DNA of 64,000 nt from a bacterium (GCA_046331705.1 JAXLQJ010000010.1:124001-188000), one strand, 5' to 3'. Positions 11,634 to 63,657 are shown, numbered from the stretch's first letter. Translations and numbers: made by a program. Notes: generated from the letters alone by a model not told the origin.

Positions 11634-11709
11634 GGTAGTGTCCTTAATTTGATTTGACGCGACGCGTTGAGGTATTCCGTGTCGTGATGCCTTATCATGA
11701 GGTGGCATC

Positions 11710-12202: not shown

Positions 12203-12574
12203 GCCGCCTTCCGCGCGGCGTTGATCCTGTCCTTGAAGTCTCGCGGAATGTGCCGCGACGAGATCGCGCCTTGCGGATCTTGTCCAGCGCTGCGGATGAG
12301 AGCCGTTTCCTGGGCTGGTAGTTCCACAGACCAGTTAGCGTCGTCTGCTGACCCGGATGGAGCGCGCGGTGGTGCTCGTAAACCACCACCGTCTCGTCCT
12401 TGAGCGGCGAATGATCGGCCGCCGTGAGAACGCACGTTGCGTCGAAGCGCCATGTAGGATCGAGCGGCACGACGATCAGTTCCAATCTGGTCGGCCACGA
12501 GAACCGCGCGGAGCCTGATGGCGCCCTTGCCGCCCATGTCGACGAGGAACGTCGCCCGCTTCGAGCTGTCCCAT
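12199..12574 (-). pseudogene. Small hypothetical protein, putative toxin, frameshifted
   Basis: Stitched frames: TFLVDMGG...LIVVP...FDATCVLTAADHSPLKDETVVVY...ALDKIRK...SSRHIPRDFKDRI; resembles small proteins found beside Panacea genes (recollection, not searched). Confidence 0.4.
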
Positions 12575-12588
12575 TCTCCGGGGCTCCA

Positions 12589-13430
12589 TCAGGCAGACAA
12601 CGCGGCGTCGATGAGTTCGCCGATATCCCAGGCCGATGCTGTGACGCCAGCAGCCATCGCCGGAGTCACACCGTCGAGCGAGAGATGGCCGCGCACGTGA
12701 AGTTGTAGTAGCCGAAATGCAATCCAACAGCCGCCTTGAGGTTCTCCAGCTTCTTGCTGAACGCGTTCGTTAACCTCGCGAATCTGCGCATCGACATTCT
12801 CATGGTGAGGTTGCCGCGCTCGACGTGACTCGTGCCGATTTTCGTGCGACGTCCGGATCGCCGATCACCACCGTCTTGCTCGTGCTGATGACCTTGGGCG
12901 GGCTGTACCTACCCGGGCCAATGGGTTCGGCTTCGTAGGCTTTTACGATCTGGCCGTAGTCCACGTCCGCGCCGAACGCCTCCTCCGGGTCGCGTCTACG
13001 TATGCCGCGAGTGCATCGGACGAGAGCTGGATGCGATTCAGTAGGCGCGACGAAAGATCGGTCAGGAACGCCGTCGCGTTCCTCGGAGTCGCGCTTCCCA
13101 TGCGGTAGCTCGGCACCAACTTGCGTCAGGATCGATCGCCACGAACGTCCACTGATCGCCGACGCGGCTCGTGTCGTCGGTCGCCTTCACGTGGCGCTGC
13201 TTCTTGCCGACGTAGCTCCAGATTTCGTCGACCTCGATCCGCTCGCATCCGAGATCTTCACCATCTCGTGATCCAGGAGGCGTTGACAGCCGTCACCGAC
13301 GCGCACCATGAGGCGCAGAATCGTGTCACGATGCACGCCGCTATTGCGCTCGGTGGCGCGGACGCTGGTACCGTCCACGAGGCACCCGATGACCAACTCC
13401 TCGCTCGGACTTGCTCAGCACGTTCGCCAT
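12589..13430 (-). pseudogene. IS1-like DDE transposase, multiple frameshifts
   Basis: N-term MANVLSK...VIGCLVDGTSVRATERNSGVHRDTILRL (HTH); C-term TSHVERGNLTMRMSMRRFARLTNAFSKKLENLKAAVGLHFGYYNF...GVTPAMAAGV...WDIGELI. Confidence 0.8.
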
Positions 13431-13695
13431 CGCCGACCCCATTCGTTAGCGGACGGATAGGACTCTAGCGAATCCCACTGATAGCGTCAGGGGACGTGCG
13501 TTCCTATTGACGTAGCTATTGGATGGTGCGCAGCCTGGGGCCGTGAAGGATGGGAAGCAACGAGGGTGACCTCGGACGGTCCGATACCGGGCTCTACACC
13601 CTACGGGGCCGCTGTCACCGCAGCGGGGTCTGGACCCTCACCCTCCCGCCACATTCCCATGAGTATTCTAGCGCATTTACGGGAGGAATCACACG

Positions 13696-14281
13696 ATGAC
13701 TGACGAAGCCGACCGCAAGAAGAAGCACCGCAGTCCGCTTAATCCGTTCTTAGCTCCGGGAAGCGATCAACTGCGCGGGCGAATTCTACAAGGACCACCG
13801 GACCAATCCGACGTCAATCCAGGCGGCCGCGACTACCTGGGGCCAGGACCCCAAGTCAGGCATTACTGGGGTTGGTGGACGGATCGTGTCAGCGCTCAAG
13901 CAGTTTGGGTTGATGGAGGAGACGGGATGGTGGCGCCACCTGGCGCCTCAAGCTGACCGATCTCGGCCGCTTGCGCTGCTGCCAGAGTCCGATTCGCGAC
14001 GTCCGACGGCCATTCGGGAAGCAGCGCTGAGGCCCAAAATTCACGAGGAATTGGTCAAATACTACCCGGAACGTCTGCCCTCGGATCAGGAGCTGAAAAC
14101 CAGCCTTGAGCTAGATCGAGGATTCAACCCGGACGCGATCCCGGCCTTTATCAAGCAGTTCCGTGATACGTGCGAGTATGCGGCGCTGTATAGCGATGAT
14201 AGACTAACGCCCGCAGCCGACGAATTCGGGGATTTGCTCGCAGAAGAGGGCAATCCGCACATCCGGGAAGCGCCAGGCTAA
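13696..14281 (+). pseudogene. Conserved hypothetical protein (possibly DNA-binding), frameshifted
   Basis: GGAGG RBS before ATG 13696; KKHRSP... then SALKQFGLME...AIREAALRPKIHEEL...LPSDQEL...DRGFNPDA...FIKQFRDT in other frames. Confidence 0.5.
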
Positions 14282-46264: not shown

Positions 46265-47785
46265 ATGCAGCCCAGCCCCGCGCAGCGCGCGCCGCGTCCG
46301 GTGGATCCGTGCACCTTCGTGATCTTCGGTGCCGCGGGCGATCTCACCCGCCGCAAGCTGGTCCCCGCGCTCTACAACCTGCAACGCGTCGGGCTCCTGC
46401 CGGACACCTTCTCGATCCTCGGCGTCGCGCGCCGCGAGCTCGACGACGAGCGCTTCCGCGCGGAGCTGGCCGAGGACCTCGCGAGCTTCACCGCCGGGCC
46501 GGTCGATGCCGCCGCGTGGTCGGCGCTCTCGCGGCGGATCCATTTCCTGCGCGGCGATTTCGACGATCACGAGACCTTCCACCGCCTCGGCGCCGCCCTC
46601 GAGACGTGCGCCAGCACCCACGGCTCCACGCGCAACGCGCTCTTCTATCTGGCGACGCCGCCGAGCCAGTTCTCGCAGGTCGTGGCCGGCTTGGGCGCCG
46701 CGGACCTGGCGCGCGAGGACGCCGGGCATTGGCGCCGCGTGGTGGTCGAGAAGCCCTTCGGTCGCGATCTCGAGTCGGCGCACGCGCTCAACCACGAGAT
46801 CGGTGCGGTCTTCGACGAGGACCAGATCTTCCGCATCGATCATTACCTGGGCAAGGAGACCGTTCAGAACATCCTGGTGTTCCGTTTCGCGAACGGGCTC
46901 TTCGAGCCGATCTGGAACCGCCGTTACGTCGACCACGTCCAGATCACCGTCGCGGAAGATCTCGGCGTGGGCACGCGCGGCAAGTACTACGAAGAGTCCG
47001 GCGTGCTGCGCGACATGATCCAGAACCACATGTTCCAGCTCTTGGCGCTGGTCGCGATGGAGCCGCCCATCTCGTTCCAGGCGGAAGCCGTGCGCGACGA
47101 GAAGGTGAAGGTGCTGCACGCGATCCGCAAGCTGATGCCCGAGGAAGTGCTGCGAAACACCGTGCGCGGCCAGTACGCCGAAGGCTTCGTCGACGGCGAC
47201 AAGGTCTCCGGCTATCGGCAGGAGCGCGACGTGTCGCCGCAATCGCAGACCGAGACCTTCGCGGCGCTCGAGCTTTACGTCGAGAACTGGCGCTGGGCCG
47301 ACGTGCCGTTCTACCTGCGCTCCGGCAAGCGTCTGGGACGGCGGGCGACCGAGATCGTCATCCAGTTCCGCCGTCCGCCCTTGTTGCTCTTCCAAGGCGC
47401 CGCGAGCGCCGGTATCGAGCCCAACCGGCTGGTGATGCACATTCAGCCCACCGAGGGGATCGCGCTCCACATCAAGGCGAAGCGGCCGGGCTCGGCCATC
47501 GAGCTGAACACCGTGAAGCTCGATTTCAGCTACGCGGATTTCGGCGAGCAGAGCCCGGCGACGGGCTACGAGCGCTTGCTCTACGACGCGATGGTGGGCG
47601 ACTCGACGCTCTTCCACCGCAGCGACATGGTGGAGGCCGCGTGGAAGATCGCGTCGCCGATCCTCGACGTGTGGAGCACGCTCAAGGCCCGCGATTTCCC
47701 CAACTACGCCGCCGGAACCCACGGCCCCGCCTCCGCCGACGCGCTGCTCGAGCGGGACGGGCGCGCGTGGTGGAACGGCGATTGA
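46265..47785 (+). CDS. zwf: Glucose-6-phosphate 1-dehydrogenase
   Basis: [37 protein letters not shown]. Confidence 0.96.
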
Positions 47786-47792
47786 GCATCCC

Positions 47793-48779
47793 ATGATCCT
47801 GGCGGGCGACATCGGCGGCACCAAGACCCACCTGGCGCTCTTCACCGCCGAGGGGCGGCGGCTCAGGATCGACGCGCAAGCGACGCATTCGAGCCGGGAG
47901 CACGCGAGCCTCGCCGAGATCTGCGAGAAGTTCCTGAGCGGACGGCAGCTCGAGATCCGCGATGCCTGCTTCGGCGTCGCCGGACCGGTGCGGCAGGGCA
48001 AGGCGCAGACCACCAACCTCGCGTGGGTGGTCGACGCCAAGGAGCTCTCGAAGACCCTCGGCATCGAGCGCGTGACGCTCATCAACGACATGGAGGCGAA
48101 CGCCTACGGCATCGCCGCGCTCGAGCCCCAGGATTTCGTCACGCTGCAGGCCGGCGAGGCCGATCCCAAGGGCCAAGCCGCGGTGCTCTCCGCCGGCACC
48201 GGCCTCGGCGAGGCGGGTCTGGTGTGGGACGGGAAGCACCACCGCCCCGTCGCGTCCGAGGGCGGCCACGCGAGCTTCGCGCCGCGCACCGATCAGCAGA
48301 TCGAGCTGCTCAAGTTCCTGCGCCGGGATTTCGAGCACGTGAGCTACGAGCGCGTGCTCTCCGGCCCCGGGCTCTTCAACGTCTATCGATTCCTGAAGGA
48401 GTCGGGGAAGCACGAAGAGCCGCGCTGGCTCGCCGACGAGATCAAGGCCGGCGATCCCGCGGCCGCCATCACGCGCGCCGCCCTCGACAAGAAATCGTCG
48501 CTCTCGAGCGCGGCGCTCGATCTCTTCATCGAGATCTACGGCGACGAAGCCGGCAACCTGGCGCTCAAGCTCATGGCGACCGCTGGCGTCTTCGTGGGCG
48601 GCGGCATCGCGCCGAAGATCGCGACCCGCATGGGCGAAGGGCGCTTCCTGAAGGCCTTTCTCGCCAAGGGCCGCATGCAGCGCGTGCTGGAAGCGATGCC
48701 CGTGCGCGTGATCCTGAACGATCGCACGGCATTGCTCGGCGCCGCTCGCGCCGCCGCCATCTACGCGGGCCGAGTGTAG
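47793..48779 (+). CDS. glk: Glucokinase
   Basis: ILAGDIGGTKT, FGVAGPV, LINDM, AGTGLGE, SEGGH, ERVLSGPGL. Confidence 0.93.
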   Translation: MILAGDIGGTKTHLALFTAEGRRLRIDAQATHSSREHASLAEICEKFLSGRQLEIRDACFGVAGPVRQGKAQTTNLAWVVDAKELSKTLGIERVTLINDMEANAYGIAALEPQDFVTLQAGEADPKGQAAVLSAGTGLGEAGLVWDGKHHRPVASEGGHASFAPRTDQQIELLKFLRRDFEHVSYERVLSGPGLFNVYRFLKESGKHEEPRWLADEIKAGDPAAAITRAALDKKSSLSSAALDLFIEIYGDEAGNLALKLMATAGVFVGGGIAPKIATRMGEGRFLKAFLAKGRMQRVLEAMPVRVILNDRTALLGAARAAAIYAGRV

Positions 48780-49609: not shown

Positions 49610-49892
49610 CGCCCAGCTCCCCCGCGCCGGTCTGTTGACGCGCCTCCATGCCGCGACCGCCTCCGCTGGAGGGCGGCCGGTCCCTCGGCCGCCCTCACGA
49701 GCGCTCCCGCCGCTTGCGCACGGAACCTCCGACCGGCGCGATTACCGCGCCGCGCCAGGGCGTCTTCAGAACGCGCCGGCATCGCTCCCCGACGAGTAGC
49801 GCAAGCACCTCCGCGGCCCCGCGCGTTGTGCCCCTCGACTGGGGTTTCTCTCGATGGCAGGATGCTCCTTCGGCTCGCATCCGGAGGCTCCC

Positions 49893-50219
49893 ATGAGCAA
49901 ACCGACTCAGATCACGACCGAGGGAATCGGACTCCAAGAGCTGATCCAGCAGCTTCGGGCCGATCTCTCGCGAGCCATGAAGGACGGGGAGAACGCGGAC
50001 CTGCGCTTCGAGCTGCAAGCCATCGACCTCGAGCTGCAAGTGGTCGTGACGAAAGAGGACGGGGGCCAGATCGGCTTCAAGATCCTTCCTTTCAGCGGCA
50101 CGGCCACCGACAAGCTCGACCGCAAGGTGACGCAGACGATCAAGCTCAAGCTGGCGCCGTCCGCCGACAGCTCGAAGCTGGTCTCGGACGTGCGGGATCT
50201 GCCTCTGGAGAGCCAGTGA
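49893..50219 (+). CDS. Trypco2-like (trypsin co-occurring) small protein
   Basis: GGAGG RBS; IGLQELIQQLRADL...LRFELQAIDLELQVVV...GGQIGFKI...QTIKLKLAP; directly upstream of a trypsin-like gene. Confidence 0.8.
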   Translation: MSKPTQITTEGIGLQELIQQLRADLSRAMKDGENADLRFELQAIDLELQVVVTKEDGGQIGFKILPFSGTATDKLDRKVTQTIKLKLAPSADSSKLVSDVRDLPLESQ

Positions 50220-50266: not shown

Positions 50267-51687
50267 ATGTCTAACTGGGACCGGCGATTTGCCGTCGCGA
50301 TCAGCGTCGAGCTGACCTCGGGCAAATCGTCTGTCGGGTCTGGCTACGCCATCGCGCCGAATCTCATCCTGACTGCGCGACACGTTGCTCGGCCGGCGAA
50401 GGCCAAGGCAGACGCCACGCCGTACGTGCATCTCGTGAATCTCGATCGAAGCAAGCATCCGGCACGACTGCGTTGGGCGCCGACCACCGACGAGGACATT
50501 GCGCTCCTCGAGGTCGAGCATGTCATCGATGAGAAGCTGACCCCTGGTCGATCCTGGCCGCCCACCCGCTCGACGCTGTGGGTAACTGGCAAGCAGAGGG
50601 CTTTCCCGCGCTGCGATCGACAGCGAGGACCCGCTCGCCCCGCACCGTTCGAGGGACGAATTCATCCATCGGTCCCGAGACGTCCGCAGCTGCTCCTCGA
50701 TGGCGTCGTTGCCCGAGAACCGGGACGATTGGGGCGGCATGTCTGGTGCCGGTGTTTTCGTCGAGGCACGCCTCGTTGGGGTGGTGAAGCGCATCCCACC
50801 TGGGAAGATGCGCAATCGCAACCTCGCGGCTACTCCTATCCTGGTTTCTCGGCGACTCCGAGTTTCGAGCGATTCTCGGCGATCCCGGAGCGGGCCGGCT
50901 GGCACAGCTCGAGCGTGAGGTGATCCGAATCCTCCAGCATGACGACCCTGCTCGCGCAGAGCTCGCCGCGCTGCTCGGCCTCGACGCAGCTTCACCGCTG
51001 GACGACGTGGCGAGGCGGGTTCTCGCGGATCGTCGGGCGGACACCGTGCTCTTCACCCTGGCCAAGGCCGCGCGACGCTCTCGCAATTCGGTGCATCCGG
51101 CGGTGGGGCCGGCCCGTACCGCCGCTTGCTCGGCGTGGTGTTGCCTCACTGCGTCGACTGGGACGGAGTCGCGCGGGCCCTCGACCGGTGGTTGCTAGAC
51201 GGCAGTGCGTCCAAGGACCTGATCGTGGTGCCCGTAGCCACGTGTGCCATCGCCGAGGTCTTGATGGCGCGTGCCCGAGGACAGCGGCAGACTTCGTTGC
51301 GACGAATGAGAGCGTCGTCGGTAGCACGGCGATCTGGGTGCGACGCAAGCCCGGCATGGATCAAGACGGTCTACTGACGAACAAGGAATTGGTCGAGGCT
51401 CGCGGCAAGCTACTTCAAGCAGAGGCGCCCACGTTCGACGCACCCGAAAGAAAGTGACCGACGCCCTCAGCATGCTCAAGCGACTATCGCCTGAGGCTCA
51501 GCCCTACTTCGTCGTGGATCCAGACGGCGATGGGAATGCTCGTGGTGAAGAGGTGAACGGTCTCGCGAAGCGCGTGAAGAGCGTGCTCACGCCATTCGTG
51601 GTCCTGGCGCTGAGCCCTCACGTGGGCGACGACACTGCCGAGGGCGGGCTCGAGTTCGCGATTCGTGAGATCATCGGCGATCACTGA
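50267..51687 (+). pseudogene. Trypsin-like serine peptidase fused to a putative VMAP-like C-terminal region; several frameshifts
   Basis: GSGYAIAPNLILTARHV (H), DEDIALLEV (D), WGGMSGAGVF...LVGVV (S) in different frames; position before MoxR. Confidence 0.7.
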
Positions 51688-51704
51688 CGCGAGGGCGAAG
51701 GATC

Positions 51705-52694
51705 ATGGCCAAGGACTTCCTCGAATGCACGGAGGGGACGCGGATCGATCTGCCCGCTCACGGCGCACTCCCGGCTGCGGTGCACGTGTTCGATGCCGAA
51801 TCGGTGCATGCCATCAATGCGGCACTCGCCGCAGAACGGCCACTGCTGGTCCGTGGTGAACCGGGCACCGGGAAGAGTCAGCTCGCGCGCGCCGCCGCCG
51901 TGGCGCTCAAGGGGGGATACAGGTCGAAGGTGATCGATGCCCGCACCGAGGTCCAGGATCTGTTCTTCACGTTCGACGCAGTGGCACGGCTTGCGGAAGC
52001 GCAGCTCCAGGGCGCGCTTCGCAGTGCCAAGCTCCAAGTCCAGCGCCGAGCGGCTCGACGAGCAGAACTTTCTCGCCCCCGGTCCGCTTTGGTGGGGCTT
52101 CGACTGGGCTTCTGCGGATCAACAAGCCCGCCGCGTGGGCGCCCATCGCCCGCCGTCACCGAACGACGCCACCGCAGCGCGAGCCGTGGTGCTGCTCGAT
52201 GAGATCGACAAGGCCGACAGCTCGGTCCCAAACGGGCTCTCGAAGCCCTCGGGAACGGTGAGTTCACGGTTCCTCGGCCGCGGCGGCAAGCCGATCCGTC
52301 TCGAGCGCGAGCGTGCTCCGCTCGTGGTCGTCACGACGAACGAGGAGCGCTCGCTTCCCGACGCCTTTCCTCCGTCGCTGTCTCGTGCTCCAGATCCGCT
52401 TGGCCGAGTCGCCGGCGGAGCTCGTGGAGTGGTTGGTGAAACGGGGAAAGGCCCATTTCCCCGCCATGACGGAGCCCATCCTTCGCGAGGCCGCGGAACT
52501 CCTCGTGAAGGAGCGTGGTGATCAAGAAGCGCTCGGGTTGTGCCCCCGGTCAGGCGGAGTACCTGGATCTGGTGCGAGATTCTCGAGCGACTTGCGGCAA
52601 CGAAGCGTGGTGACCGTGCCAAGGCACAGAGGAAGCTGCTCAACGACGTGAAGCGATTCGCGCTGCGCAAGCACCCGACGAGGTCGCGGTGTAG
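51705..52694 (+). pseudogene. MoxR-family AAA+ ATPase, frameshifted
   Basis: AINAALAAERPLLVRGEPGTGKSQLARA, VVLLDEIDKAD, PLVVVTTNEERSLPDAF, LRRCLV; end approximate. Confidence 0.85.
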
Positions 52695-55600
52695 GCCGTG
52701 GCGCGCCGGACCGCAAAGCGTCGTCGCACCAGCCATGGCGCGCGGCGCCGCTCTCACGCGCGAACCTCCGTCGGTCTTGCGGATCTTCTGCTCCGCGCTC
52801 CATTCCAACGCCCAGCGCGATTGGCCGAGCGTTGCGGCGCTGCTCGAGTACGAGCTGGTGGAGCCAGCGATTGCACCGCGAGGTCGCATGCCGCGGCGTC
52901 CGCGCGCGTCCTCGGTCGACGAGGCGGAAACGAGCCTCCCCAGCAGCGAGCTTCCTGCGTCACCGCTTCGGCTCACTCCATTCTGGCGCGCCGAAGAGAT
53001 CACCGTACGACCCGACCGCCCGAAACGTCGCCGAGACCCGCTGCCCCCTGGAGTCCGGCCTCTAACGCGCGCAGAGCGCCGAGGCGAGCAAGCGCTCGAG
53101 ACAAGCCCGACTAGCCCGCCTGCAGTGCCGTTACGCGCGTGGCCAACGCTTCTGAGCTGGAGCGGCGCCTCGCGGGGCGCTCCCATGGTCGTCAGATCGA
53201 CATCGAGACTCTGGTTCGTGCTTGGTACCGCGGCCAAGTGGTGTCGCGCATTCCGTATCGCACCCGCCGTGCGTGGCCGGGGCGGTTCACCCTCATCTTT
53301 GACAGGAGCCATCGGCTGCGACCCTTCTGGAGGATGAAGACCGCGTCGAGGATGGGTCCCTGCGGGCGTGCGGCCCGAACAGGATCAGCGAGTCCTTCAG
53401 ACCCGATGGCACGCGCCTCGTGCTCGACAGGGAAAACCGTCCGAAACGGCTCGTCGTACGCGATGACCTGAGCGACGGTCCGATCCTCGCGCTCACAGAT
53501 CTCGGGATCTATGGGGATTCCAGCACCCGAACTTCCTGGCTTCGTGAGGGAGAGCTTCGGCGGCGAAACGGCCAGGCTCTGGTTGCGCTTGTGCCATGCC
53601 CCACGGAGCGCTGGCCGCGGCGGCTCACGAATCCCTGGCACGGCGTGGCTTGGGAAGCGGTACGGCCGGCACCCCCACCGAGGCAACACGTAGCGCGCGC
53701 ATCCGCGAGCGACCCAGACACACTCGAGGTTCGTGCTGAGCGCCTCATGCGTCTGTTGGCGCACGCCGAGTGGATTGAGCCGGGGCTCATGCGCGCAGTC
53801 CGTAGGCTATTGCCTGCGGCGGACGCCGACGTGGGGACGGAGGCCGACGTTTGGGGTGGGACACCTGGCCCCAGCGTGGAGATTCCACCGGCGCTCCGAG
53901 TGAGGCTGCGCCAGGAATTTGCGAACGAGCCCGAGGCGCTCCGCCGCGCGGTACTGGAGCAAATTTCGCTCTGGCATTCCTCACTGCCTCCGGAGGTCTG
54001 GTGTGCCGAATGGTGGGCACTCGACCGGGAGAGCAAGCGCCTCGTGCCGGGCCAGGACGCTGTGCGGGCGCGGAACATGGCGTGGCGATTTCTGGCCACG
54101 CTGCCTTCTCCGCACGTGGATGCCGCCGGCAAGACCGCCGTCGCGCGCTGGCTCCGCTCGTGCGAGGAGGCTTGGCGCTCTGTGCTGCCCGAGGACCCAC
54201 AGCTCCGCGAATCACTTGGCCGTGCGTGGCTCCTTCTTCATCATGGTGACACGCGGACGATGGCACCAGCGGGCGTCGAGCTAGAGCTGGCTCGACGATC
54301 TCCTCCGGATCGGAGCGTCGGCGCGTGACCTCGATGTGGCATGACGGCCAGTTCCTGCGCTGCCTGGATTCAGGCGTCTCGCACCGCACGGCGCCGCGCG
54401 GAGCTTCGTCGCACGCGTGCGGCTCGTGCAGCCTGGACTCCAGGTTGAGTCCGTAACCCGGGCGGAACGAGCCCAGGTCGATCTCGAGCAGAAAGCGCAA
54501 CTCGAGCTTTCACCAAGCTCGTCGGTCATCCTCCACACCGATCGCACACGGCTGCGGCTCGGGATCTTCGAGCGTCCTGAGTGGGCGGCCGCCGTGGGGC
54601 GCGATCGCTTCGGGCTGTGGGCGGAGATCGAGGTGAAGGGCGTGCGTCTTCGGCTGCGATGGATTCCGCCGGGGCGGTTCTGGATGGGACCGCAGAAGAT
54701 GAGCCGGGAAGGCTCCCGCGGAACACCGCCGGCAGGTCACGGTCACCCACGGCTTCTGGCTCGGGGAAACCCCGTGCACACAGGATCTGTGGCAAGCGGT
54801 GATGAACGCGAATCCCGGCATGTTCAGGTCCGACCCGTCCGGTGGAGCAAGTGAGCTGGAACGGATTGCCAGCGCTTCTTCGAGCGGCTTGCGCAGCACG
54901 TGCCGGATCTGACGCTTGTGCCGTCCGAGCGGAGTGGGAATACGCCTGTCGCGCCGGCACCGAGTCCGCGACGTACGCCGGCGATCTCGACATCGCGGTG
55001 AGAACCACGCCCCCGTGCTCGACGGAATCGCCTGGTACGCGGGGAACAGCGGGATCGGCTTCGAGCTGGAAAACGGCTACGACTCTTCGACCTGGAGCGA
55101 GAAGCAGCACGCGCACTCGCGCGCAGGCACGCATCCGGTGGGCCAGAAGCCAACGCATGGGGCCTTCGCGACATGCTCGGCAACGTTTTCGAGTGGTGCG
55201 CCGACCGCTTCGACACGGAAGGGTCGGTGCTGCCACATCCGGAGGGAATTCCGCCGAGCGACCTCCGCGTCGCACGTGGTGGTTCCTGCGGTTCGCGTGC
55301 GCTCGAGGTCCGCGCGGCGTTTCGCTACGCACGCGCCAGCGAGGCGACCAACGGCGACCTGGGGTTTCGCCTCGCGGCGCGGCTCGAGGCAGTTCCGAGT
55401 CTGATCCCCTCTCGCACCCAGTTACTTGCGGAGTTTGGTGCGCCCGACGACATCGATTGGGCACGTGACCTTGGGCGCGATCGGTTTGGGTTGTGGGCGG
55501 AGATCGAGGTGAAGGGCGTTCGTCATCGGCTGCGATGGATTCCGCCGGGGCGGTTCTGGATGGGCTCACCCGAAGGCGAGGCTGGGCGGTGGGAGGACGA

Positions 55601-56147
55601 AGGACCGCGGCATCTGGTCACGTTGAGCCGTGGCTTCTGGCTCGGGGAGACCCCGTGTACGCAGGCGCTGTGGGAAGCGGTGACGGGCAAGAACCCAAGC
55701 GAGTTCAAGAGCCCGACGCGTCCCGTGGAGCAGGTGAGCTGGAACGATTGCCAGAGGTTCCTCGCGCGCCTCGATGAAGCCGTGCCGGGGTTCGTGCCAC
55801 GACTTCCCTCGGAGGCGGAGTGGGAGTACGCGTGCCGCGCCGGAACCGAGACCGCCACCTACGCCGGTGATCTCGAGATCCTCGGTGAGCGGAACGCGCC
55901 CCTGCTGGACCCGATCGCCTGGTACGGCGGAAACAGTGGAAAGGGCTTCGATCTGAAGAAGGGCTTCGACTCCTCCGATTGGCCGGAGAAGCAGTACGAC
56001 CACCGCCGAGCAGGTACGCGGCCCGTGGGCGAGAAGGCGCCCAATCCATGGGGGCTTCGCGACATGCTCGGGAACGTCTACGAGTGGTGCAGCGACGGGT
56101 ACGGGCCGTACGCTCCGGGTGCGGTGCAAGACCCCGCAGGACCTGCC

Positions 56148-56274
56148 GAGGGCTCGCTTCGCGTGCTCCGTGGCGGCTCTTGGCTCTCGCACGCTGAGTA
56201 CGTGCGTGCGGCGCACCGGATCAGGGGCGGGCCGGACGCTCGCGACGGCTACCTTGGCTTCCGCCTTGCCCGAG
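56148..56274 (+). repeat. DGR variable repeat VR1
   Basis: Colinear with TR over 127 nt; 17 mismatches, 16 at TR adenines. Confidence 0.96.
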
Positions 56275-56362
56275 GTCAGGGTGCGCCAGGCCAGGAAAGC
56301 GAGCGTGCCGGAGGGGGCGCGGCGCGGGCCGGCCAGGCGGGGACCGCCGTCGGCCCGGCCCG
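56275..56362 (+). promoter_or_regulatory. Putative IMH (GTCAGGGTGCGCCA) and downstream hairpin for VR1
   Basis: 14-mer shared with the VR2 flank but not with TR; GGCGG-GGA-CCGCC stem-loop at 56336-56348. Confidence 0.65.
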
Positions 56363-56519
56363 AAGCACGCGACCCCAAGGCGTAAGCCAAGGAGCGGGTG
56401 TCACGAAGACGCGCGCATCGTCCAAGCGGAAGCAATAGGCTCATGGCCAGACCACGCGCGGCCCTTGGCCGCGCGTCGCGCATTTTTCGCGAAGCTCACG
56501 AGTGGGAGCCGCCGTGCGT

Positions 56520-57014
56520 ATGCGCTTCTTCACGATTCCCGTCTTCGCCGACGACACTGCCGCGAACGAGCTCAACGGGTTCCTCGCCTCCCGTCGCGTG
56601 CTTTCGATCGATCGCCGGCTGATCGACGACGGCCCGGGGAGTGCTTGGGCCGTGTGCGTCACCTACCTCGACGCGACGAGCGGCGCGGCACCGATCAAGA
56701 AGGGCAAAGTCGACTACAAAGAGGTGCTTTCCGACGGCGATTTCGCAGTGTTCGTGCGCCTGCGCGCACTTCGGAAGAGCTTGGCCGAGCGCGATGCCGT
56801 ACCCGCCTACGCCATCTTCACGAACGAGCAGCTCGCCGCGATGGTCGAGCGGTGAGTGAGCACGGCGGCCGACATCGAGTCGATTGAAGGTGTCGGCAAG
56901 TCGCGGGTGGAGAAGTACGGCGCCGCGTTCCTCGAGATCCTGTGCTCCGCGGACCTCGCCGCGGCGCCAGCCGCCCTGACGGCCACCACCACCACCACCA
57001 CCGCCGCCGAGTAG
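56520..57014 (+). CDS. HRDC-domain DGR accessory protein, interrupted by an in-frame TGA at 56853-56855
   Basis: FVRLRALRKSLAERDAVPAYAIFTNEQLAAMVER*VSTAADIESIEGVGKSRVEKYGAAFLEIL reads through as a full HRDC motif; ends 7 bp before the RT. Confidence 0.85.
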
Positions 57015-57021
57015 GCCGCCG

Positions 57022-58032
57022 ATGCCGAGGCGCAGCGCGGTCAGCCTCGGCGAGATCGCATCGTTCGAGAATCTGGCAGCGGCGTTCTGGCGCGCCGCCC
57101 GAGGCAAACGCCACCGGCTGGAGGTGCGCCGCTTCGAGGCGCAACTGGAGCACGAGCTGGCGGCCCTCGCCGCCGAGATCGTCTCGCTTCGTGTGCCGGT
57201 CGGGCGGTTTCACGTGTTCCAGGTCTTCGACCCGAAGCCGCGCCTGATTCACGCGCCGGCCTTTCGCGAGCGTGTGCTGCACCACGCCATGATGCGGCCG
57301 ATGGAGCCCGTGCTCGATCGCTCGTTGGTCGACGACACGTTCGCGTGTCGCACGGGGAAAGGCACCTTGGCCGCCGTCGAGCGCGCGCAACACCATCTCA
57401 GACGCTTCTCGTGGTACGCGAAGCTCGATGTGAGGCGCTACTTCGCCAGTGTCGATCATGCGGTTCTTCGAGCGCTTCTCGAGCGCCGCTTCAAGGACCC
57501 GGGGCTTCTGGCACTTTGCGCCCGTGTGATCGATGCGCACCACGCGGCACCCGGGAAGGGCCTGCCCATCGGTGCGCTCACGTCGCAGCACTTCGCCAAT
57601 CTCTACCTCGCATCGCTCGACCGATTCCTCTTGGAGGAGCAGCGCGTGGCCGGGCTGGTGCGCTACATGGACGACGTGGCGTGGTGGTGCGAGACCAAGG
57701 AACACGCTCGCGAATCGCTTCGAAACGCGGTCCAGTTGCTGCGCGAGCGACTACTGCTCGAGGTTCACCCCAACGCACGCGTTCAGCGCAGCTCGCACGG
57801 GCTCTCGTTCCTGGGTTTCCGCGTGCGGCGGGGCGCGTTGCTGCTTTCTCGGCGGCGGCGTGTGCGTTACCGGGCCGCTCGGCAACGCTGGGAAGAGGCG
57901 TTCCGCCTCGGCCTGGTCGAGGCCCGGACCCTCCAGGCTGGCTATGCCTCCGCGCTCGCGATCACGCTCCACGCCGAGAGCCGGGGCTGGCGCCGGGCGG
58001 AGCTGGTGCTCCATCCGCCGCTGGACGCGTGA
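57022..58032 (+). CDS. DGR reverse transcriptase
   Basis: KPRLIHAPAFRERVLHHA, ACRTGKGT, KLDVRRYFASVDH, GLPIGALTSQHFANLYL, RYMDD, FLGF; 336 aa with no maturase or endonuclease extension. Confidence 0.96.
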   Translation: MPRRSAVSLGEIASFENLAAAFWRAARGKRHRLEVRRFEAQLEHELAALAAEIVSLRVPVGRFHVFQVFDPKPRLIHAPAFRERVLHHAMMRPMEPVLDRSLVDDTFACRTGKGTLAAVERAQHHLRRFSWYAKLDVRRYFASVDHAVLRALLERRFKDPGLLALCARVIDAHHAAPGKGLPIGALTSQHFANLYLASLDRFLLEEQRVAGLVRYMDDVAWWCETKEHARESLRNAVQLLRERLLLEVHPNARVQRSSHGLSFLGFRVRRGALLLSRRRRVRYRAARQRWEEAFRLGLVEARTLQAGYASALAITLHAESRGWRRAELVLHPPLDA

Positions 58033-58069
58033 GCGGCAGCTGGGTAGAAGGTCGGTGGACGAGAGTCAC

Positions 58070-58196
58070 GAGGGCTCGAATCGCGTGATCCGTGGCGGCT
58101 CTTGGAACTCGAACGCTGAGAACGTGCGTGCGGCGAACCGGAACTGGAACGAGCCGGACGATCGCAACGACAACCTTGGCTTCCGCCTTGCCCGAG
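58070..58196 (+). ncRNA. DGR template repeat (TR)
   Basis: 8 AAC + 1 AAT codons in the target frame (EGSNRVIRGGSWNSNAENVRAANRNWNEPDDRNDNLGFRLAR); 26 adenines; 37 bp after the RT stop. Confidence 0.96.
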
Positions 58197-58365
58197 CGCA
58201 CGAGCGGGCCGTGGTGCCCGCCCCTGACCCGACTCTCGTCCAGCCCGTCGGTGGGAACGCCGGCGGCAAACAGCAAGCGGGCGCCAGCGTGCCCGTAGCA
58301 CGGCGGATGCCGCGTCGAGCGCTCGCTGGCCGCCCACCCTTCGTTTTGTGCAGCGGACGGTCGTG

Positions 58366-59495
58366 ATGGCGGCGGCCTTCGCTTCTCACCCGCTCGAGAC
58401 GGGCGTGCCGCCGTCGTGGGCGTGCGAGTGGGGGGACGATCGCTACGGAGTGTGGGCGGGATTCGCGGTGGGCGAGGTCACGCACCGGCTGCGCTGGATC
58501 CGACCCGGGACGTTCTGGATGGGCTCGCCAAAGGGCGAAGCGGGGCGGTGGCCGGACGAGGGACCGCGTCATCGTGTGACGATCCGCAGCGGGTTCTGGC
58601 TGGGTGAGATGCCGTGTACCCAGGCGCTCTGGGAAGCGGTGATGGGTGAGAACCCGAGCAGATTCCAGAGCCCTACGCGCCCCGTGGAGCGCGTGAGCTG
58701 GAGCGATTGCCAGGCGTTCCTCGCTCGCCTCGGCGAGCGCGTTCCGGAGCTTAAGCCGCGGCTGCCCACCGAGGCCGAATGGGAGTACGCGTGCCGCGCC
58801 GGGACCACGACCAGCACCTATGCAGGCGAGCTGGTGATTCGCGGCGACAACGACGGCCCGGTGCTGGATGCCATCGCCTGGTACGGCGGCAACAGCGGTG
58901 TGGGATTCGAGTTGGCCGAAGCAGAGGACTCCTCGAAGTGGCCGAAGAAGCAGCACCCGCACAAGAAGGCGGGGACTCGGCCCGTGGGCTTGAAGGCACC
59001 GAATCCGTGGGGCCTCTGCGACATGCTCGGAAACGTTTGGGAATGGTGCGGCGATTGGTTTGGTGACTACGCCCCCGCAGCAGTGACCGATCCGACAGGA
59101 CCGGCCGAGGGCTCGGATCGCGTGTTCCGTGGCGGCTCTTGGGGCTCGTACGCGCGGAGCGTGCGTGCGGCGTACCGGGACTGGTACGGGCCGGCGTTCG
59201 CATCGACTACCTTGGCTTCCGCCTTGCCCGAGGTCAGGGTGCGCCAAGCGAGGCCGCGGTAGCGGCCAGCCAGACCGGTGCGAGCGAGCGCGGGTTGGCG
59301 AGGCGGGGACCGCCGAGCAAGACCCGCGGCGAGCGAGTGAAGCAAGAGCGAGTGCCTGCCGGCGCGGGGCGCGCCCCGCGCCGGTTTCGAAATTTTTTGC
59401 CGGGGATCGTGCCTTTCGATCCCACGGTGCTGGCTCTCACAGTTCCGGGCGCGCCGCTGAGCTCGAGTGAGCTCACCGCGCGACATCCCGCGTGA
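58366..59495 (+). CDS. DGR target 2: stand-alone FGE-sulfatase (CLec-fold) protein; a 1-nt deletion in VR2 gives a stop at 59262 as written, corrected frame ends at 59495
   Basis: WIRPGTFWMGSP, PVERVSW, RLPTEAEWEYACRAG, NPWGLCDMLGNVWEWC, RVFRGGSW; YLGFRLARG appears in the shifted frame. Confidence 0.85.
59107..59232 (+). repeat. DGR variable repeat VR2
   Basis: Colinear with TR; 16 substitutions, 14 at TR adenines, plus one 1-nt deletion at a TR adenine. Confidence 0.95.
59233..59328 (+). promoter_or_regulatory. Putative IMH (GTCAGGGTGCGCCA) and downstream hairpins for VR2
   Basis: Same 14-mer as after VR1; GGCCGC-GGTA-GCGGCC at 59252-59267; GGCGG-GGA-CCGCC at 59302-59314. Confidence 0.65.
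59359..59398 (+). terminator. Perfect 26-bp GC palindrome followed by a T-rich tract; possible intrinsic terminator at the island end
   Basis: CCGGCGCGGGGCGCGCCCCGCGCCGG then TTTCGAAATTTTTT. Confidence 0.55.
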
Positions 59496-59712
59496 CTTGG
59501 CCTCGGACACCGCGCCACGCCCGCCGGGCGGGGGAAGAGGGCCGTCGAGGGACCGACGGCCCGCCAGTCGATCTGTGCAGCACGGTCTCGACGCTCAGCC
59601 TTCCACCTCTTCGCGCGTGGGCGCTTCGCTGCGAGCGGCTGTAACGCTTGCGGCGCTCGGTGGACCGAACCTGGGGCGATTGCCGCGGCCCCGGCACGGG
59701 TGGAGCGAAACG

Positions 59713-59967
59713 ATGCGTTGTGTCGACGTCACCGAGCTGGTCACCGAATACGTCGAGGGGCGCATGCCCCTCGGCGAGCGCTTGCGATTCCAGCTCCACC
59801 TCGGTGCGTGCGGGCATTGCCGCGCCTATCTGGCGCAGATGCGCCAGACGGTTCGCGCGCTCGAGCGCGTCGCGCCGGCGCCCATGCCGCAGGACGTCCG
59901 CGCCGAGCTCGAGCGCCGCTTTCGCGATTGGTCGCGGACCAAGCCCTCGGACGGCGAAGCCGAGTGA
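59713..59967 (+). CDS. Zinc-finger (zf-HC2) anti-sigma factor-like protein
   Basis: MRC...ELVTEYVEG...HLGACGHCRAY (HxxxCxxC). Confidence 0.85.
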   Translation: MRCVDVTELVTEYVEGRMPLGERLRFQLHLGACGHCRAYLAQMRQTVRALERVAPAPMPQDVRAELERRFRDWSRTKPSDGEAE

Positions 59968-60069
59968 AACGCTTTCGCGCGATCCGCGACTGATAGCCGT
60001 GAGCCGCGGCACCGGGTGGCACCGACGATGGGGTCGGACACGCGGCGCGCGACGGCTCGAGAGGAAGCC

Positions 60070-60654
60070 ATGACTCACGCACACGCCACCGTCGCCACCG
60101 CCGCCGCCGTGAACCTCGCCATGCCCATCGCGGAGACTCCGATGTCCACCGATGCCAAGCCGTCGAATTTTCTGCGCTCGGCCATCGCCAAAGGCGAGGC
60201 ACTCTACGGTGTGTTCACGCGGGTCGCGGACCTCCTGCCGCACCCCGTGCTGGCGATCCTGCGCGGGTATTGGGGCTACCAGTTCTTCCAGACCGGCAAG
60301 GGCAAGCTGATGGATCTGGCTTCCGTCACCGACTTCTTCGCTTCGCTCGGCATCCCGGCGCCCCATCTCAACGCCATGATGGCGGGCGCGACCGAGTGCG
60401 TGGGCGGGCTCTTGCTCTTGGTGGGGCTGGGATCGCGGCTCGTTTCGGTGCCGCTTTCCATCACGATGCTGGTCGCGTACGCGACCGCGCATCGCGAGGC
60501 GTTGCTCGGCATCTTCGGCGATCCCGACACGTTCTTGCAGCAGGAGCCGTTCTTGTTCCTGCTCACCGCGGTGTTGGTGCTCGCGTTCGGGCCGGGTGCC
60601 TTCTCGCTCGACGCGCTCGTGAAGAAGCTCGTCCAGAAACGTCGCGCCGCGTGA
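60070..60654 (+). CDS. DoxX-family membrane protein
   Basis: FFQTGKGKL, FFASLGIPAP, ECVGGLLLLVGLGSRL, FGPGAFSLD. Confidence 0.88.
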   Translation: MTHAHATVATAAAVNLAMPIAETPMSTDAKPSNFLRSAIAKGEALYGVFTRVADLLPHPVLAILRGYWGYQFFQTGKGKLMDLASVTDFFASLGIPAPHLNAMMAGATECVGGLLLLVGLGSRLVSVPLSITMLVAYATAHREALLGIFGDPDTFLQQEPFLFLLTAVLVLAFGPGAFSLDALVKKLVQKRRAA

Positions 60655-61292: not shown

Positions 61293-62099
61293 ATGCGACG
61301 CGCCCTTCGTGAGCATTGGCCCGAGTACCTGATGGAGGCGGCGCTCCTCGGGATCTTCATGGTCCTCGCCACGGCGTACACCGTCGCCCTCGAGTACCCG
61401 GGCTCGCCGCTGCGCGCGGCGATCACGAGCGCCGCCGCGCGGCGCGCCCTCATGGGCGTGCTGATCGGCTGCACGGCGTACGCGCTGATCGTCTCGCCGT
61501 GGGGACGGCAGAGCGGCGCGCACTTCAATCCCGCGACCACGCTCACGTTCCTGCGTCTCGGCAAGATCGGCGGCTGGGACGCGCTCTTCTACGTGGTCGC
61601 CCAGTTCGTGGGTGCGGTCCTCGGGACGGTGCTGATCCGCGCGCTGGTCGGCGCGCCGGTCGCTCATCCCACGGTGGCCTACATCGTGACGACACCGGGC
61701 GCGAGCGGCGTCGCCGCGGCGTTCGCCGGCGAGCTCGCCATCGCCTTCGGGCTGATGACGGTGGTGCTCACGGTCTCGAACCATCCCACGCTGCACACCC
61801 GGACACCGCTCTTCGTGGGAATCCTGGTCGGCACGTACATCCTCGTCGAGGCGCCGCTCTCGGGCATGAGCCTGAATCCCGCGCGCTCGTTCGCGCCGGC
61901 GCTGGTCGCCGATTGGTGGCCGTCGCTCTGGATCTACTTCACGGCGCCGCCGCTCGGGATGCTGCTCGCCGCGCAGTCGTACCTGGCGCTCGCGGGGGCC
62001 GAGAAGGTCCACTGCGCCAAGATCCATCACGTGGGCGACGCGCGTTGCGTCGTCTTCCACTGTCGCTTCGGCGATCTCGTCGCGACGAGCGCTCGCTGA
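61293..62099 (+). CDS. MIP/aquaporin family channel
   Basis: SGAHFNPA and GMSLNPARS. Confidence 0.9.
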   Translation: MRRALREHWPEYLMEAALLGIFMVLATAYTVALEYPGSPLRAAITSAAARRALMGVLIGCTAYALIVSPWGRQSGAHFNPATTLTFLRLGKIGGWDALFYVVAQFVGAVLGTVLIRALVGAPVAHPTVAYIVTTPGASGVAAAFAGELAIAFGLMTVVLTVSNHPTLHTRTPLFVGILVGTYILVEAPLSGMSLNPARSFAPALVADWWPSLWIYFTAPPLGMLLAAQSYLALAGAEKVHCAKIHHVGDARCVVFHCRFGDLVATSAR

Positions 62100-62112: not shown

Positions 62113-63657
62113 ATGTCCGCGAATCACTACGACGTCATCATCATCGGCTCGGGCGCGGGCGGAGGCACGCTCGCCTGGAAGCTCGCGCCGAGCGGCAAGC
62201 GCGTTCTCATCCTCGAGCGCGGGAGCTACGTGCCGCGGGAGCGCGACAACTGGGACTCGAAGAAGGTCATCCTGGAGGCGAAGTACCACGTCACCGAAGA
62301 GTGGTTCGACGCGAACGGGCATGGGTTCCATCCCGGCGCTCACTACAACGTGGGCGGCAACACGAAGTTCTACGGCGCGGCGCTGCTGCGCATGCGCGAG
62401 CGCGACTTCGGCGAGCTGGCGCACGCCGACGGCATCTCGCCCGCATGGCCGATCTCGTACGACGAGCTCGAGCCTTATTACACCCAGGCCGAGCACCTCT
62501 ACTTCGTGCACGGCGAGCGGGGTGTCGATCCCACCGATCCCCGCGCCAGCGCCGACTACAAGTACCCCGCGATGAGCCACGAGCCGCGGATCCAGGAGCT
62601 CTCGGACGATCTCGGAAGGCTCGGTCTCGCGCCGTTCCACGTGCCCGTGGGCGTGATGATCGACGAACGCAACCCACACGCGAGCCCGTGCATCCGGTGC
62701 AGCACCTGCGACGGATTTCCGTGCCTGGTGAACGCCAAGGCGGATGCGCAAGTGGTGTGCGTGGATCCGGCGCTGCGGCATCCCAACGTGTCGCTGCTCA
62801 CGGGCGCGATGGTCACCAAGCTCGAGACCAGCGCCTCCGGTCGCGAGGTTTCGAAGGTACACGTGAAGCGAAACGGCGCCCTCGAGACCTACAGCGCCGG
62901 CCTCGTGGTGGTCTCGGCGGGGGCCATCAACTCGGCGGCGCTGTTGCTGCGCTCGGCCAACGACAGGCACCCGAACGGCCTGGCGAATGGCTCGGACCAG
63001 GTCGGGCGGAACTACATGGCGCACGTCAACTCGATGATGCTCGCGATCTCCAAGCGCCCGAACCCCACGGTCTTCCAGAAGACGCTGGCCATCAACGATT
63101 TCTATTTCGGCACCGACGACTACGCGCACCCGATGGGGCACATCTCGTTCGTCGGCAAGAGCGACGAGTACATGCTCGCCGCGGGCGCGCCCAAGATCGT
63201 GCCGGGGCTCACGCTCGACGTGATGGCCAAGCACTCGCTCGATTTCTGGATGACCACCGAGGATCTGCCGGATCCCGAGAACCGCGTGACGCTCACCGAC
63301 GACGGCGCGATCCAGCTGCGCTATCGCGTCAACAACCTCACGTCGCACGGCATGCTGCAGAAGAAGCTCAAGTCGATGCTGGAGCACATCGGCTGCGAGG
63401 ACCACCTGCTGCCGCACAACTTCTACGTGGGCAAACGGATCCCGCTCGCGGGCGTCGCGCACCAGAACGGAACGGTGCGCTTCGGCTCGGACCCGCGAAC
63501 GTCCGTCCTGGATCCCACGTGCAAGGCGCACGAGGTCGAGAACCTCTACGTGGTGGACGGCAGCTTCTTCCCCTCGAGCTCGGCCGTGAACCCGGCGCTC
63601 ACGATCATCGCCAACGCGTTGCGGGTGGGCGATCACCTCGCGACCCGGTTGGGCTGA
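62113..63657 (+). CDS. GMC-family oxidoreductase
   Basis: IIGSGAGG, VGGNTKFYGAAL, VGRNYMAH, AHQNGT, NLYVVDGSFFPS, NPALTIIANAL. Confidence 0.9.
   Translation: MSANHYDVIIIGSGAGGGTLAWKLAPSGKRVLILERGSYVPRERDNWDSKKVILEAKYHVTEEWFDANGHGFHPGAHYNVGGNTKFYGAALLRMRERDFGELAHADGISPAWPISYDELEPYYTQAEHLYFVHGERGVDPTDPRASADYKYPAMSHEPRIQELSDDLGRLGLAPFHVPVGVMIDERNPHASPCIRCSTCDGFPCLVNAKADAQVVCVDPALRHPNVSLLTGAMVTKLETSASGREVSKVHVKRNGALETYSAGLVVVSAGAINSAALLLRSANDRHPNGLANGSDQVGRNYMAHVNSMMLAISKRPNPTVFQKTLAINDFYFGTDDYAHPMGHISFVGKSDEYMLAAGAPKIVPGLTLDVMAKHSLDFWMTTEDLPDPENRVTLTDDGAIQLRYRVNNLTSHGMLQKKLKSMLEHIGCEDHLLPHNFYVGKRIPLAGVAHQNGTVRFGSDPRTSVLDPTCKAHEVENLYVVDGSFFPSSSAVNPALTIIANALRVGDHLATRLG

Follow-up and report, generated by a model that had tools for sequence, protein, structure and literature searches.

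A window of bacterial DNA, 64,000 nucleotides in length (GCA_046331705.1 JAXLQJ010000010.1:124001-188000), contains what its sequence identifies as a genuine diversity-generating retroelement (DGR): a single template repeat (TR) and two variable repeats (VR1 and VR2), independently mutagenised at adenines and located in lectin domains of the FGE type. With moderate confidence, we interpret the locus as a real DGR within a conserved MoxR-type conflict cassette, putatively an immune system, which is decaying in this genome and probably lacks homing of its own. The gene order given by an earlier, sequence-only reading, namely target 1, HRDC gene, reverse transcriptase (RT), TR and target 2, is borne out by the open reading frames (ORFs) and Pfam matches. 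The same reading called the element complete, a description that finds no support: the HRDC gene has an internal stop, a deletion shifts the frame in VR2, and target 1 belongs to a large gene riddled with frame changes. The extent ascribed to the unit was also too small, since it begins near 49.8 kb with genes for Trypco2, trypsin-like and MoxR-like proteins, and includes a structured RNA.

The recognition of three repeat copies is confirmed, with the starts now placed one base earlier and a unit of 128 instead of 127 nt (Table 1). The TR copy is located outside any target gene. Its alignment to VR1 is free of gaps and contains 17 mismatches, 16 of them at TR adenines (six A>C, five A>T and five A>G) and one a T>A change that converts TGG to AGG. 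VR2 differs from the TR by 14 adenine substitutions (seven A>G, seven A>T), by two adjacent non-adenine changes (T>G and G>C) and by the loss of a single nucleotide, TR A58158. These computed alignments reproduce the mismatch counts previously proposed for both VRs. Differences between the TR and the VRs thus fall almost solely at TR adenines, which make up only 26 of the 128 bases; by a hypergeometric test on the computed alignments, the enrichment has P values of 8.9e-13 for VR1 and 6.6e-11 for VR2 (15/17, with the deletion counted in). A lack of adenine enrichment, named beforehand as evidence that would speak against a DGR, did not occur.

The fate of the individual adenine sites agrees with the proposed independent mutagenesis of the two VRs. 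Five of the 26 sites are unchanged in both, six are altered in VR1 alone, five in VR2 alone and ten in both; because eight of these ten were changed to differing bases, VR1 and VR2 were evidently written independently. Upon recomputation, no adenine-containing TR codon can reach a stop codon when A alone changes, and the coding capacity amounts to 4^26 = 4.5e15 DNA variants, both as stated earlier, corresponding to 6.3e14 computed protein variants. Outside the adenines, only 1/102 sites (VR1) and 2/102 sites (VR2) differ from the TR, which suggests that the last homing was recent in terms of point substitutions. When all 64 kb of the window were searched by blastn with the TR, no further copy came up.

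The same arrangement recurs widely. Screening one genome per species brought up 221 relatives, and the best 80 loci, drawn from Pseudomonadota, Myxococcota, Planctomycetota, Acidobacteriota and other phyla (a Thiohalocapsa contig, L044, among them), were kept for comparison. In tblastn searches these 80 loci show a uniform order: an FGE target comes first, then the HRDC gene (ahead of the RT in 78/80), the RT and a further FGE target. Between one and four VRs align with the sequence that follows each RT. Counting pairs of at least 100 nt, the 80 loci and the window provide 152 TR-VR pairs (the two from the window included), 123 of which have no more than four non-adenine differences. A VR of L031 (T>G) and VR1 of the window (T>A) are altered at the same TR thymine, in the context GAAC-T-GGAA (AAC TGG AAC), which may be a recurrent site of non-adenine error. 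A net length change not divisible by three is found in the VRs of 8/152 pairs, including VR2 of the window; the other frame-breaking VRs belong to L006, L011, L029, L036, L053, L074 and L075. In L036, as in VR2 of the window, the lost base is a TR adenine.

Unless cut by a contig end or broken, the upstream target of the relatives is an open frame of about 830-1400 aa, built from an N-terminal extension of ~550-620 aa (sometimes longer) and one or two FGE domains, while the downstream target has a frame of about 270-450 aa. At every locus with two upstream FGE copies (24/24: L003, L004, L005, L009, L010, L014, L018, L019, L021, L026, L027, L031, L035, L045, L046, L048, L049, L050, L054, L059, L068, L069, L071 and L078) the copies are fused in frame without an intervening stop, and each has its own VR. 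Since the two-domain frame is open, one VR of such fused targets is internal and its recognition sequence lies in a coding linker; the GC hairpins in linkers of this kind often read Ala-Glu-Pro. One of these loci, L019 (Competibacteraceae), has two small downstream targets, the second at 10462-11286, and a 69-nt exact repeat precedes each of them (8342-8410 and 10442-10510), suggesting that the small target was duplicated not long ago. Two cassettes occur in one genome in the cases of L036 and L043, L060 and L066, L034 and L078, and L014 and L059.

The RT of the window contains the GxxxSQ and YMDD motifs noticed in the first reading, in the form of IGALTSQ and YMDD. In an alignment of 22 family sequences, its own included, 73 columns are invariant, and the RT keeps every one of them, IG..SQ and YMDD among them. 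The best solved relative is 8ub7 (2.5e-38, 135.6 bits), far ahead of the group II RTs, which reach at most 52.3 bits. The aligned 8ub7 chain has K29, F66, R74, I76, I181, G182 and Q187, the residues named for the Bordetella phage bRT in the part of the Handa preprint used here (bioRxiv 10.1101/2023.10.23.563531); we therefore take 8ub7 to be bRT. Equivalents of these residues are invariant or nearly so in the window RT family. NCBIfam places a group II intron RT/maturase model first, at 104 bits against a cut-off of 300, gives 37.9 bits to the retron St85 model (cut-off 235), and returned no DGR-specific model for the four proteins of the locus. Scanned with Rfam at E up to 1, positions 54000-60000 gave no match to a group II intron or retron RNA. 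By sequence, then, the RT is of the DGR type, nearer to a DGR RT than to those of group II introns or retrons, and the score comparisons give no sign of the group II or retron affiliation that had been named as contrary evidence. RT homologs number 1243 at E up to 1e-10 among 8000 candidates scored; the nearest is 99% identical and the next 66%. A tree of the window RT and the 79 family members with an RT match of at least 300 residues, built without an outgroup, places metagenome-assembled genomes of Myxococcota, Planctomycetota and Acidobacteriota nearest.

Both VRs lie in the last part of FGE-sulfatase domains (Pfam, 1.6e-43 for target 1 and 1.3e-43 for target 2), the frame being broken at VR2, and the best solved relative of target 1 is TvpA, a DGR target from Treponema (2y3c, 5.5e-26), in keeping with the assignment of the targets to CLec-fold domains. 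Identification of the targets as EgtB, PvdO, GldK or similar enzymes was rejected, as the NCBIfam hits were far below the cut-offs. Two targets are indeed present; target 1, however, is not a whole gene but only the last domain of a large broken one. Its stop-to-stop frame (55002-56438) runs from the tail of a preceding domain A into the intact FGE domain B, as in the tandem proteins of relatives. Domain A has suffered six frame changes, and its alignment with domain B (909 columns, 28 gap events) shows 70.2% identity; its former VR has lost its match to the TR (alignment score of 45 versus 188 for VR1). The remnant of the N-terminal extension is found in pieces at 53157-53375 (frame 3), 53468-54322 (frame 2) and 54375-54911 (frame 3). 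For this extension, Pfam finds nothing beyond FGE-sulfatase in nine large targets, the Atlas holds unnamed clusters only, and a fold search was empty at E up to 0.001, the AlphaFold model having a pLDDT (predicted local distance difference test) of 80.4. A vWA domain in the large target has no Pfam hit and only weak fold matches, to the NorD vWA (probability 0.95, E 0.035) and to 1shu (TM 0.49). In target 2, the Pfam match covers profile positions 7-246 of 255, nine positions short of the end: the VR2 deletion shifts the frame, which now ends ...YGPAFASTTLASALPEV..., and thereby removes the conserved C-terminal motif YLGFRLARG, which stands in another frame.

Approximately 160 nt after the TR are conserved across relatives. 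A first RNAalifold run (MAFFT, 65 sequences) gave a single 12-pair helix and was superseded by a 16-sequence subgroup, whose consensus has three helical parts with compensatory changes in 18/25 pairs. A covariance model of 157 positions, built from the 16-sequence alignment and searched in 81 sources (the 80 loci and the window), gave a single hit in 78/81, directly downstream of the TR where one was called; the copy in the window scores 111 bits. In the model-fitted alignment, which leans towards its model, 91.3% of paired cells are complementary as opposed to 37-44% with slid partners, double changes occur in 25/25 pairs, and the observed values were reached by 0/500 shuffles. In addition, sequences on the two sides of the TR can form a duplex that would clamp it. 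Cognate arms form at least 11 bp in 26/67 sources (66 related loci and the window), compared with 3.8% of 795 non-cognate arm pairs (Mann-Whitney P 9e-14). The Rfam scan of 54000-60000 yielded one chance-level hit (HTT-AS1_3, E 0.17), and no known Rfam family covers the TR-flanking RNA. A literature search by title and abstract found nothing concerning an RNA element in HRDC-type DGRs; in the part of the Handa preprint drawn upon, the Spacer RNA and stop duplex were sought in 278 Avd-containing DGRs only. In one related locus (L028:8237-8387), the TR-associated RNA is on the minus strand and no TR-VR pair was detected there, so that it may represent an inversion or a rearranged cassette.

Beyond the end of TR homology, the 14 nt that follow VR1 and VR2 are identical, and the TR differs there. 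A GC hairpin common to both flanks sits in outer stems of different sequence. As the predicted folds were not significantly more stable than those of shuffled sequences (z -0.42 for VR1 and -1.99 for VR2), the hairpins are consistent with a DGR target-site hairpin without demonstrating one. A requirement for the initiation of mutagenic homing (IMH) element and a hairpin has been shown in BPP-1 (PMC3240598, in part), and by analogy the elements flanking the VRs would fit this role. The shared hairpin has a 3-nt GGA loop, whereas a GRNA-type loop, as in BPP-1, is present at VR2 alone. In relatives, the commonest non-adenine TR-VR difference is found in the base or two right after ...CGAG, the IMH*/IMH boundary, and the boundary change CG>GT is common to the window and its myxobacterial relatives.

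The accessory gene ahead of the RT encodes an HRDC domain (Pfam, 1.9e-17, residues 75-141), and this match spans an in-frame stop at residue 112; translation in three frames reads ...LAAMVER*VST... around it. At the corresponding column in 78 related loci, Arg is found in 55 and a stop in none, and a CGA>TGA nonsense change is the simplest reading. Mapped onto a model of the intact L012 protein, the stop position removes three of the five HRDC helices. The protein database lists a truncated HRDC product of 111 aa, on three contigs. The window hence has no intact accessory gene beside its RT, which counts against the description 'complete and active' but not against identity as a DGR. Damaged accessory genes recur in the family: L040, L022 and L053 have an in-frame stop within the HRDC gene alignment, and in L070 (512-926) the gene is split over two frames. 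At its 3' end (56986-57010), just ahead of the RT start, the HRDC gene of the window has a run of ACC codons that encodes a Thr-rich tail.

Of 846 candidates, 401 belong to the HRDC family at E up to 1e-05, with a typical length of 156-165 aa. The L012 model (pLDDT 89.8) consists of a beta-alpha-beta-beta N-terminal domain and a RecQ-like HRDC domain. In a PDB fold search the HRDC half was matched (RecQ HRDC, E 3.6e-05), and the N-terminal domain found no convincing fold match, the Alba-like and dodecin hits having E >0.2. Prediction of the L012 RT-HRDC complex gave a score of 0.69, the best of three controls giving 0.00. This mark is attained by 58/80 solved complexes and 2/110 mismatched pairs, counts that hold only roughly here, as custom alignments were used. 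Contacts agree to at least 53% across runs, the partner pLDDT is at least 74, and RT residues 287 and 301-336 are predicted to meet HRDC residues 95-108 and 128-129; both contact segments contain family-invariant residues. The modelling supports binding of the HRDC protein to the RT in the HRDC-type family. According to the same model, the truncated HRDC protein of the window would keep the first contact segment and lose the second together with the fold.

Upstream of the large target lie the components of a conflict system. Trypco2, whose gene is an open frame here, is described in the parts of two accounts cited (PMC7159879, PMC10907252) as an adapter often found beside trypsin effectors in MoxR-type conflict systems. 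The trypsin-like gene that follows is a remnant: Trypsin_2 matches at 5.2e-06 (profile 1-69 of 144), and tblastn with the L012 and L067 proteins recovers residues 19-191 of 486 in frames 2, 1 and 3. Of the MoxR-like gene, AAA_5 and bpMoxR match the P-loop piece only, and tblastn with the L012, L067 and L027 proteins places its pieces in frames 3, 1, 2 and 3. Upstream ORFs were scanned in nine of the relative loci; an intact MoxR-like gene precedes the large target in 6/9 and a trypsin-like gene in 4/9, one with TIR.

In total, at least 13 frame changes occur between 50285 and 55400 (~5 kb). Frames supported by G+C content at third codon positions (GC3) number 36, of 104-967 codons, elsewhere in the window, and none is found between 50219 and 59968. 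The frame junctions and indel sites inspected are ordinary sequence without homopolymers; runs of five or more occur at 1.16 per kb in this island versus 0.68 per kb elsewhere. Long-read homopolymer errors were rejected as the cause of the 13 shifts, given junctions without homopolymers and too few runs. TGA recoding was likewise rejected, as the 36 GC3-supported frames terminate normally under table 11. From the sequence, we read the upstream frame changes as probable true pseudogenisation, with local assembly error the less likely cause.

Table 1. Positions of the repeats, RNA elements and genes of the DGR locus, counted from the first nucleotide of the window
Feature	Position	Strand	Basis or remark
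Repeat unit, 128 nt, three copies	56147-56274, 58069-58196, 59106-59233	+	Repeat finder
TR, 26 adenines	58069-58196	+	Repeat finder, alignments
VR1	56147-56274	+	Alignment to TR, ungapped
VR2	59106-59232	+	Alignment to TR; 1-nt deletion between 59194 and 59195
Structured non-coding RNA directly 3' of TR (Spacer-like)	58197-58354	+	Covariance model
Hairpin inside Spacer-like RNA	58204-58221	+	RNA model
TR-clamping 12-bp duplex	5' arm 58056-58067, 3' arm 58231-58242	+	Perfect Watson-Crick complementarity
VR1 downstream flank: IMH-like 14 nt (56275-56288), GC hairpin (56336-56348)	56275-56348	+	
VR2 downstream flank: same 14 nt (59233-59246), GC hairpin (59302-59314)	59233-59314	+	
Additional 6-bp hairpin in VR2 flank, GGTA loop	59252-59267	+	DNA fold
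Trypco2-domain gene, open frame	49800-50219	+	Pfam PF19631 3.5e-23, profile 1-78 of 78
Trypsin-like peptidase remnant (VMAP-like effector in relatives), pseudogene	50285-50840	+	Pfam, tblastn
MoxR-like AAA+ ATPase, pseudogene, at least three frame changes	51687-52677	+	Pfam, tblastn
Remnant of ~600-aa N-terminal extension of large target, frameshifted	53157-54911	+	tblastn, targets of eight relatives
Decayed first FGE domain (A) of large target	54530-55400	+	Three-frame translation, alignment
Target 1 open frame: last piece of domain A, linker, FGE domain B	55173-56438	+	ORF list
FGE domain B with VR1, intact, open	about 55455-56290	+	Pfam
HRDC accessory gene with in-frame TGA 56853-56855 (residue 112 of 164)	56520-57014	+	Translation, Pfam
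DGR reverse transcriptase, 336 aa, intact	57022-58032	+	Pfam RVT_1, PDB match, motifs
Target 2, small single-domain FGE/C-type-lectin protein, end frameshifted	58366-59262	+	Pfam

The architecture of this DGR is already in print (PMC10907252, PMC7159879, PMC5758913), and the comparisons below draw on portions of these accounts. By architecture only, the cassette matches clade 5A of Doré et al. (PNAS 2024, PMC10907252), in which a MoxR ATPase and a long-extension target without predicted domains occur with a short lectin-only target and with Trypco and peptidase neighbours. The window has the corresponding parts: a MoxR-like pseudogene, a frameshifted extension target, a short target, Trypco2 and a trypsin remnant. 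As exemplified by DGR 8 of Thiohalocapsa PB-PSB1, clade 5A shares the short lectin-only target, Trypco2 and the trypsin-like effector with the window. The DGR classes of that genome each consist of one complete locus and 'degenerate' loci in which machinery is missing or pseudogenized, so that degenerate copies exist there too. In contrast to clade 5A, the window retains only pseudogenes of the MoxR-like and trypsin-like proteins and of the bulk of the large target. In the portion of that account considered, the accessory protein is not named HRDC and the RNA element is not described.

The clade 5A organisation represents a variant form of the ternary VMAP conflict systems (Kaur, Burroughs, Iyer and Aravind, eLife 2020, PMC7159879). 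The VMAP or MoxR-vWA systems, like the window, combine a MoxR-like AAA+ ATPase with a trypsin effector and Trypco2, and their third component ends, as here, in a DGR-diversified TvpA-like FGE (FGS) domain. They have a vWA sensor, whereas the large target in the window shows weak vWA-like folds and nothing in Pfam. In the survey of Wu et al. (NAR 2018, PMC5758913), DGRs with HRDC form Architecture C (14/372, in 11 different arrangements) and FGE-sulfatase targets form category b; the survey also notes cassettes with several targets and tandem FGE domains that have internal VRs. Treponema denticola TvpA and Architecture C share an HRDC accessory, FGE-type lectin targets and a C-terminal VR with the window. 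Architecture C was scarce and varied in 2018, in contrast to the large and uniform family reported here (221 relatives in one scan), which also differs from that set in that its TR follows the RT and its neighbourhood is that of a conflict system.

The likeness to the BPP-1 element, again judged from portions of what is published, extends to the motifs of the RT and its residues in contact with template and dNTP, adenine-specific mutagenesis, a candidate 3' boundary element common to the VRs and differing in the TR, predicted GC hairpins after the VRs, and a structured RNA of ~140-157 nt directly 3' of the TR with a duplex joining both TR sides. The two systems differ in their accessory protein (the Avd barrel in BPP-1, an HRDC protein with an additional N-terminal domain in the window), in the place of the TR (upstream of the RT in BPP-1, downstream in the window) and in their targets (a phage tail fibre as opposed to putative sensors in a cellular host).

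From these comparisons a working scheme can be proposed. The intact cassette would encode, in order, Trypco2, a trypsin-like effector, a MoxR-like ATPase, a large sensor with one or two FGE domains that each end in a VR, the HRDC protein, the RT, the TR, the structured RNA and a small lectin-only protein with a VR. By extrapolation from BPP-1, the RT-TR-RNA transcript would fold such that the duplex clamps the TR with the Spacer-like RNA next to it; the RT and HRDC protein would then copy the TR into cDNA, misreading adenines; and the cDNA would replace each VR, guided by the common VR 3' sequence and the GC hairpins beyond. Judged by sequence, the RT, TR, RNA, last sensor domain with VR1 and the putative cis-elements of the VRs are intact, and the accessory gene, one VR and the surrounding conflict system are damaged. 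Because helper, sensor and VR2 are broken while RT, TR, RNA and VR1 are intact, we read the two VRs as traces of retrohoming in the fairly recent past, left by an element that probably can no longer home alone. Homing, we infer, continued up to recent times and may have outlasted the large target. A broader proposal, which we hold only tentatively, is that HRDC-type DGRs build a ribonucleoprotein of their own, distinct from that of bRT and Avd, from the RNA of about 157 nt, the TR-clamping duplex and an HRDC protein docked at the C-terminal helices of the RT, and that the core in the window outlived its conflict system and kept writing into a dead gene. Such writing fits a form of retrohoming that needs cis-elements only and no working target.

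Several observations weigh against an element that can no longer home. The TGA and the 1-nt deletion each stand as one isolated change, and either might be an error of sequencing or of the consensus; a consensus error would be most likely at the VR2 deletion, if the VR varies in the population. The truncated 111-aa product retains part of the predicted RT interface, and a GTG directly after the TGA makes a split HRDC protein conceivable. The parts that make cDNA look healthy, with the invariant residues of the RT kept and the RNA helices kept via compensatory changes, and the near absence of non-adenine divergence in the VRs fits poorly with a long-dead system. Finally, the accessory protein might come from another, complete locus in the part of the genome beyond these 64 kb.

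It is worth asking whether the DGR is fully active in cis, the lesions being assembly or consensus errors, or else tolerated, through a split HRDC protein and a VR2 to be overwritten later. The intact RT, TR and RNA and the scarcely diverged VRs favour such activity, as does the identity of the deleted VR2 base, since loss of a TR adenine is expected if the RT made the deletion; indels by slippage of bRT are mentioned in PMC12875486. Because frame-breaking indels recur in the family (the eight pairs above, with a further adenine loss in L036), frameshifted VRs may be a transient, self-repairing state. We nonetheless regard full activity in cis as unlikely: errors would have to explain at least 13 frame changes within 5 kb next to 36 open frames elsewhere in the window, at junctions and indels that are not in long homopolymer runs, and tolerance would have to accommodate a stop that, in the model, deletes three of five HRDC helices and whose truncated product is in the database on three contigs.

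Equally improbable, in our estimation, is a degenerate locus with VRs rewritten in trans by a second complete DGR of the same class that supplies HRDC and perhaps RT or TR RNA. The complete and degenerate loci within each DGR class of Thiohalocapsa PB-PSB1 offer a precedent, several relatives carry two cassettes per genome, and trans service would account for fresh VRs beside dead genes. The 64-kb window, though, contains no second TR, RT or HRDC gene, and rewriting from a foreign TR should have left the sequence of that TR behind, whereas the VRs match the local TR at 100-101 of 102 non-adenine sites. The last alternative, that the locus is no DGR at all but a set of paralogous gene ends kept alike by gene conversion beside the RT of a group II intron or retron, finds some comfort in the NCBIfam ranking and is effectively refuted by the sub-threshold scores behind that ranking, the empty Rfam search, the 8ub7 match, a TR outside any target gene, and an adenine enrichment (P about 1e-12) that recurs in 123/152 pairs.

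The finding of decay in this DGR is itself of small importance, being one more decaying copy of a DGR type already described (Wu 2018, Kaur 2020, Doré 2024). Of wider relevance is the HRDC-type family. RNA requirements have so far been analysed for Avd-type DGRs only, as far as the portion of the Handa preprint used here extends, and the HRDC-type family now adds comparable elements that covary strongly, namely a Spacer-like RNA conserved to the same degree and a duplex that clamps the TR. Together with the modelled docking of HRDC to the RT, these provide concrete elements for reconstituting an Avd-independent DGR. The fresh VRs beside pseudogenised genes also offer a natural case for distinguishing the persistence of a DGR after loss of its host function from service in trans.

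No phage genes were found among the ORFs scanned in the window. A segment at 11500-14200 has a G+C content of 0.625-0.66, compared with about 0.70, and no long GC3-supported frame. The island sits among housekeeping genes, as intact genes for glucose-6-phosphate dehydrogenase and glucokinase (46265-48776) adjoin it upstream. The genes directly downstream look ordinary and intact, and encode a zf-HC2 anti-sigma-like protein (59713-59964) and a DoxX membrane protein (60070-60651), followed further on by the likewise intact and ordinary-looking genes for an MIP channel (61293-62096) and a GMC oxidoreductase (62113-63654).

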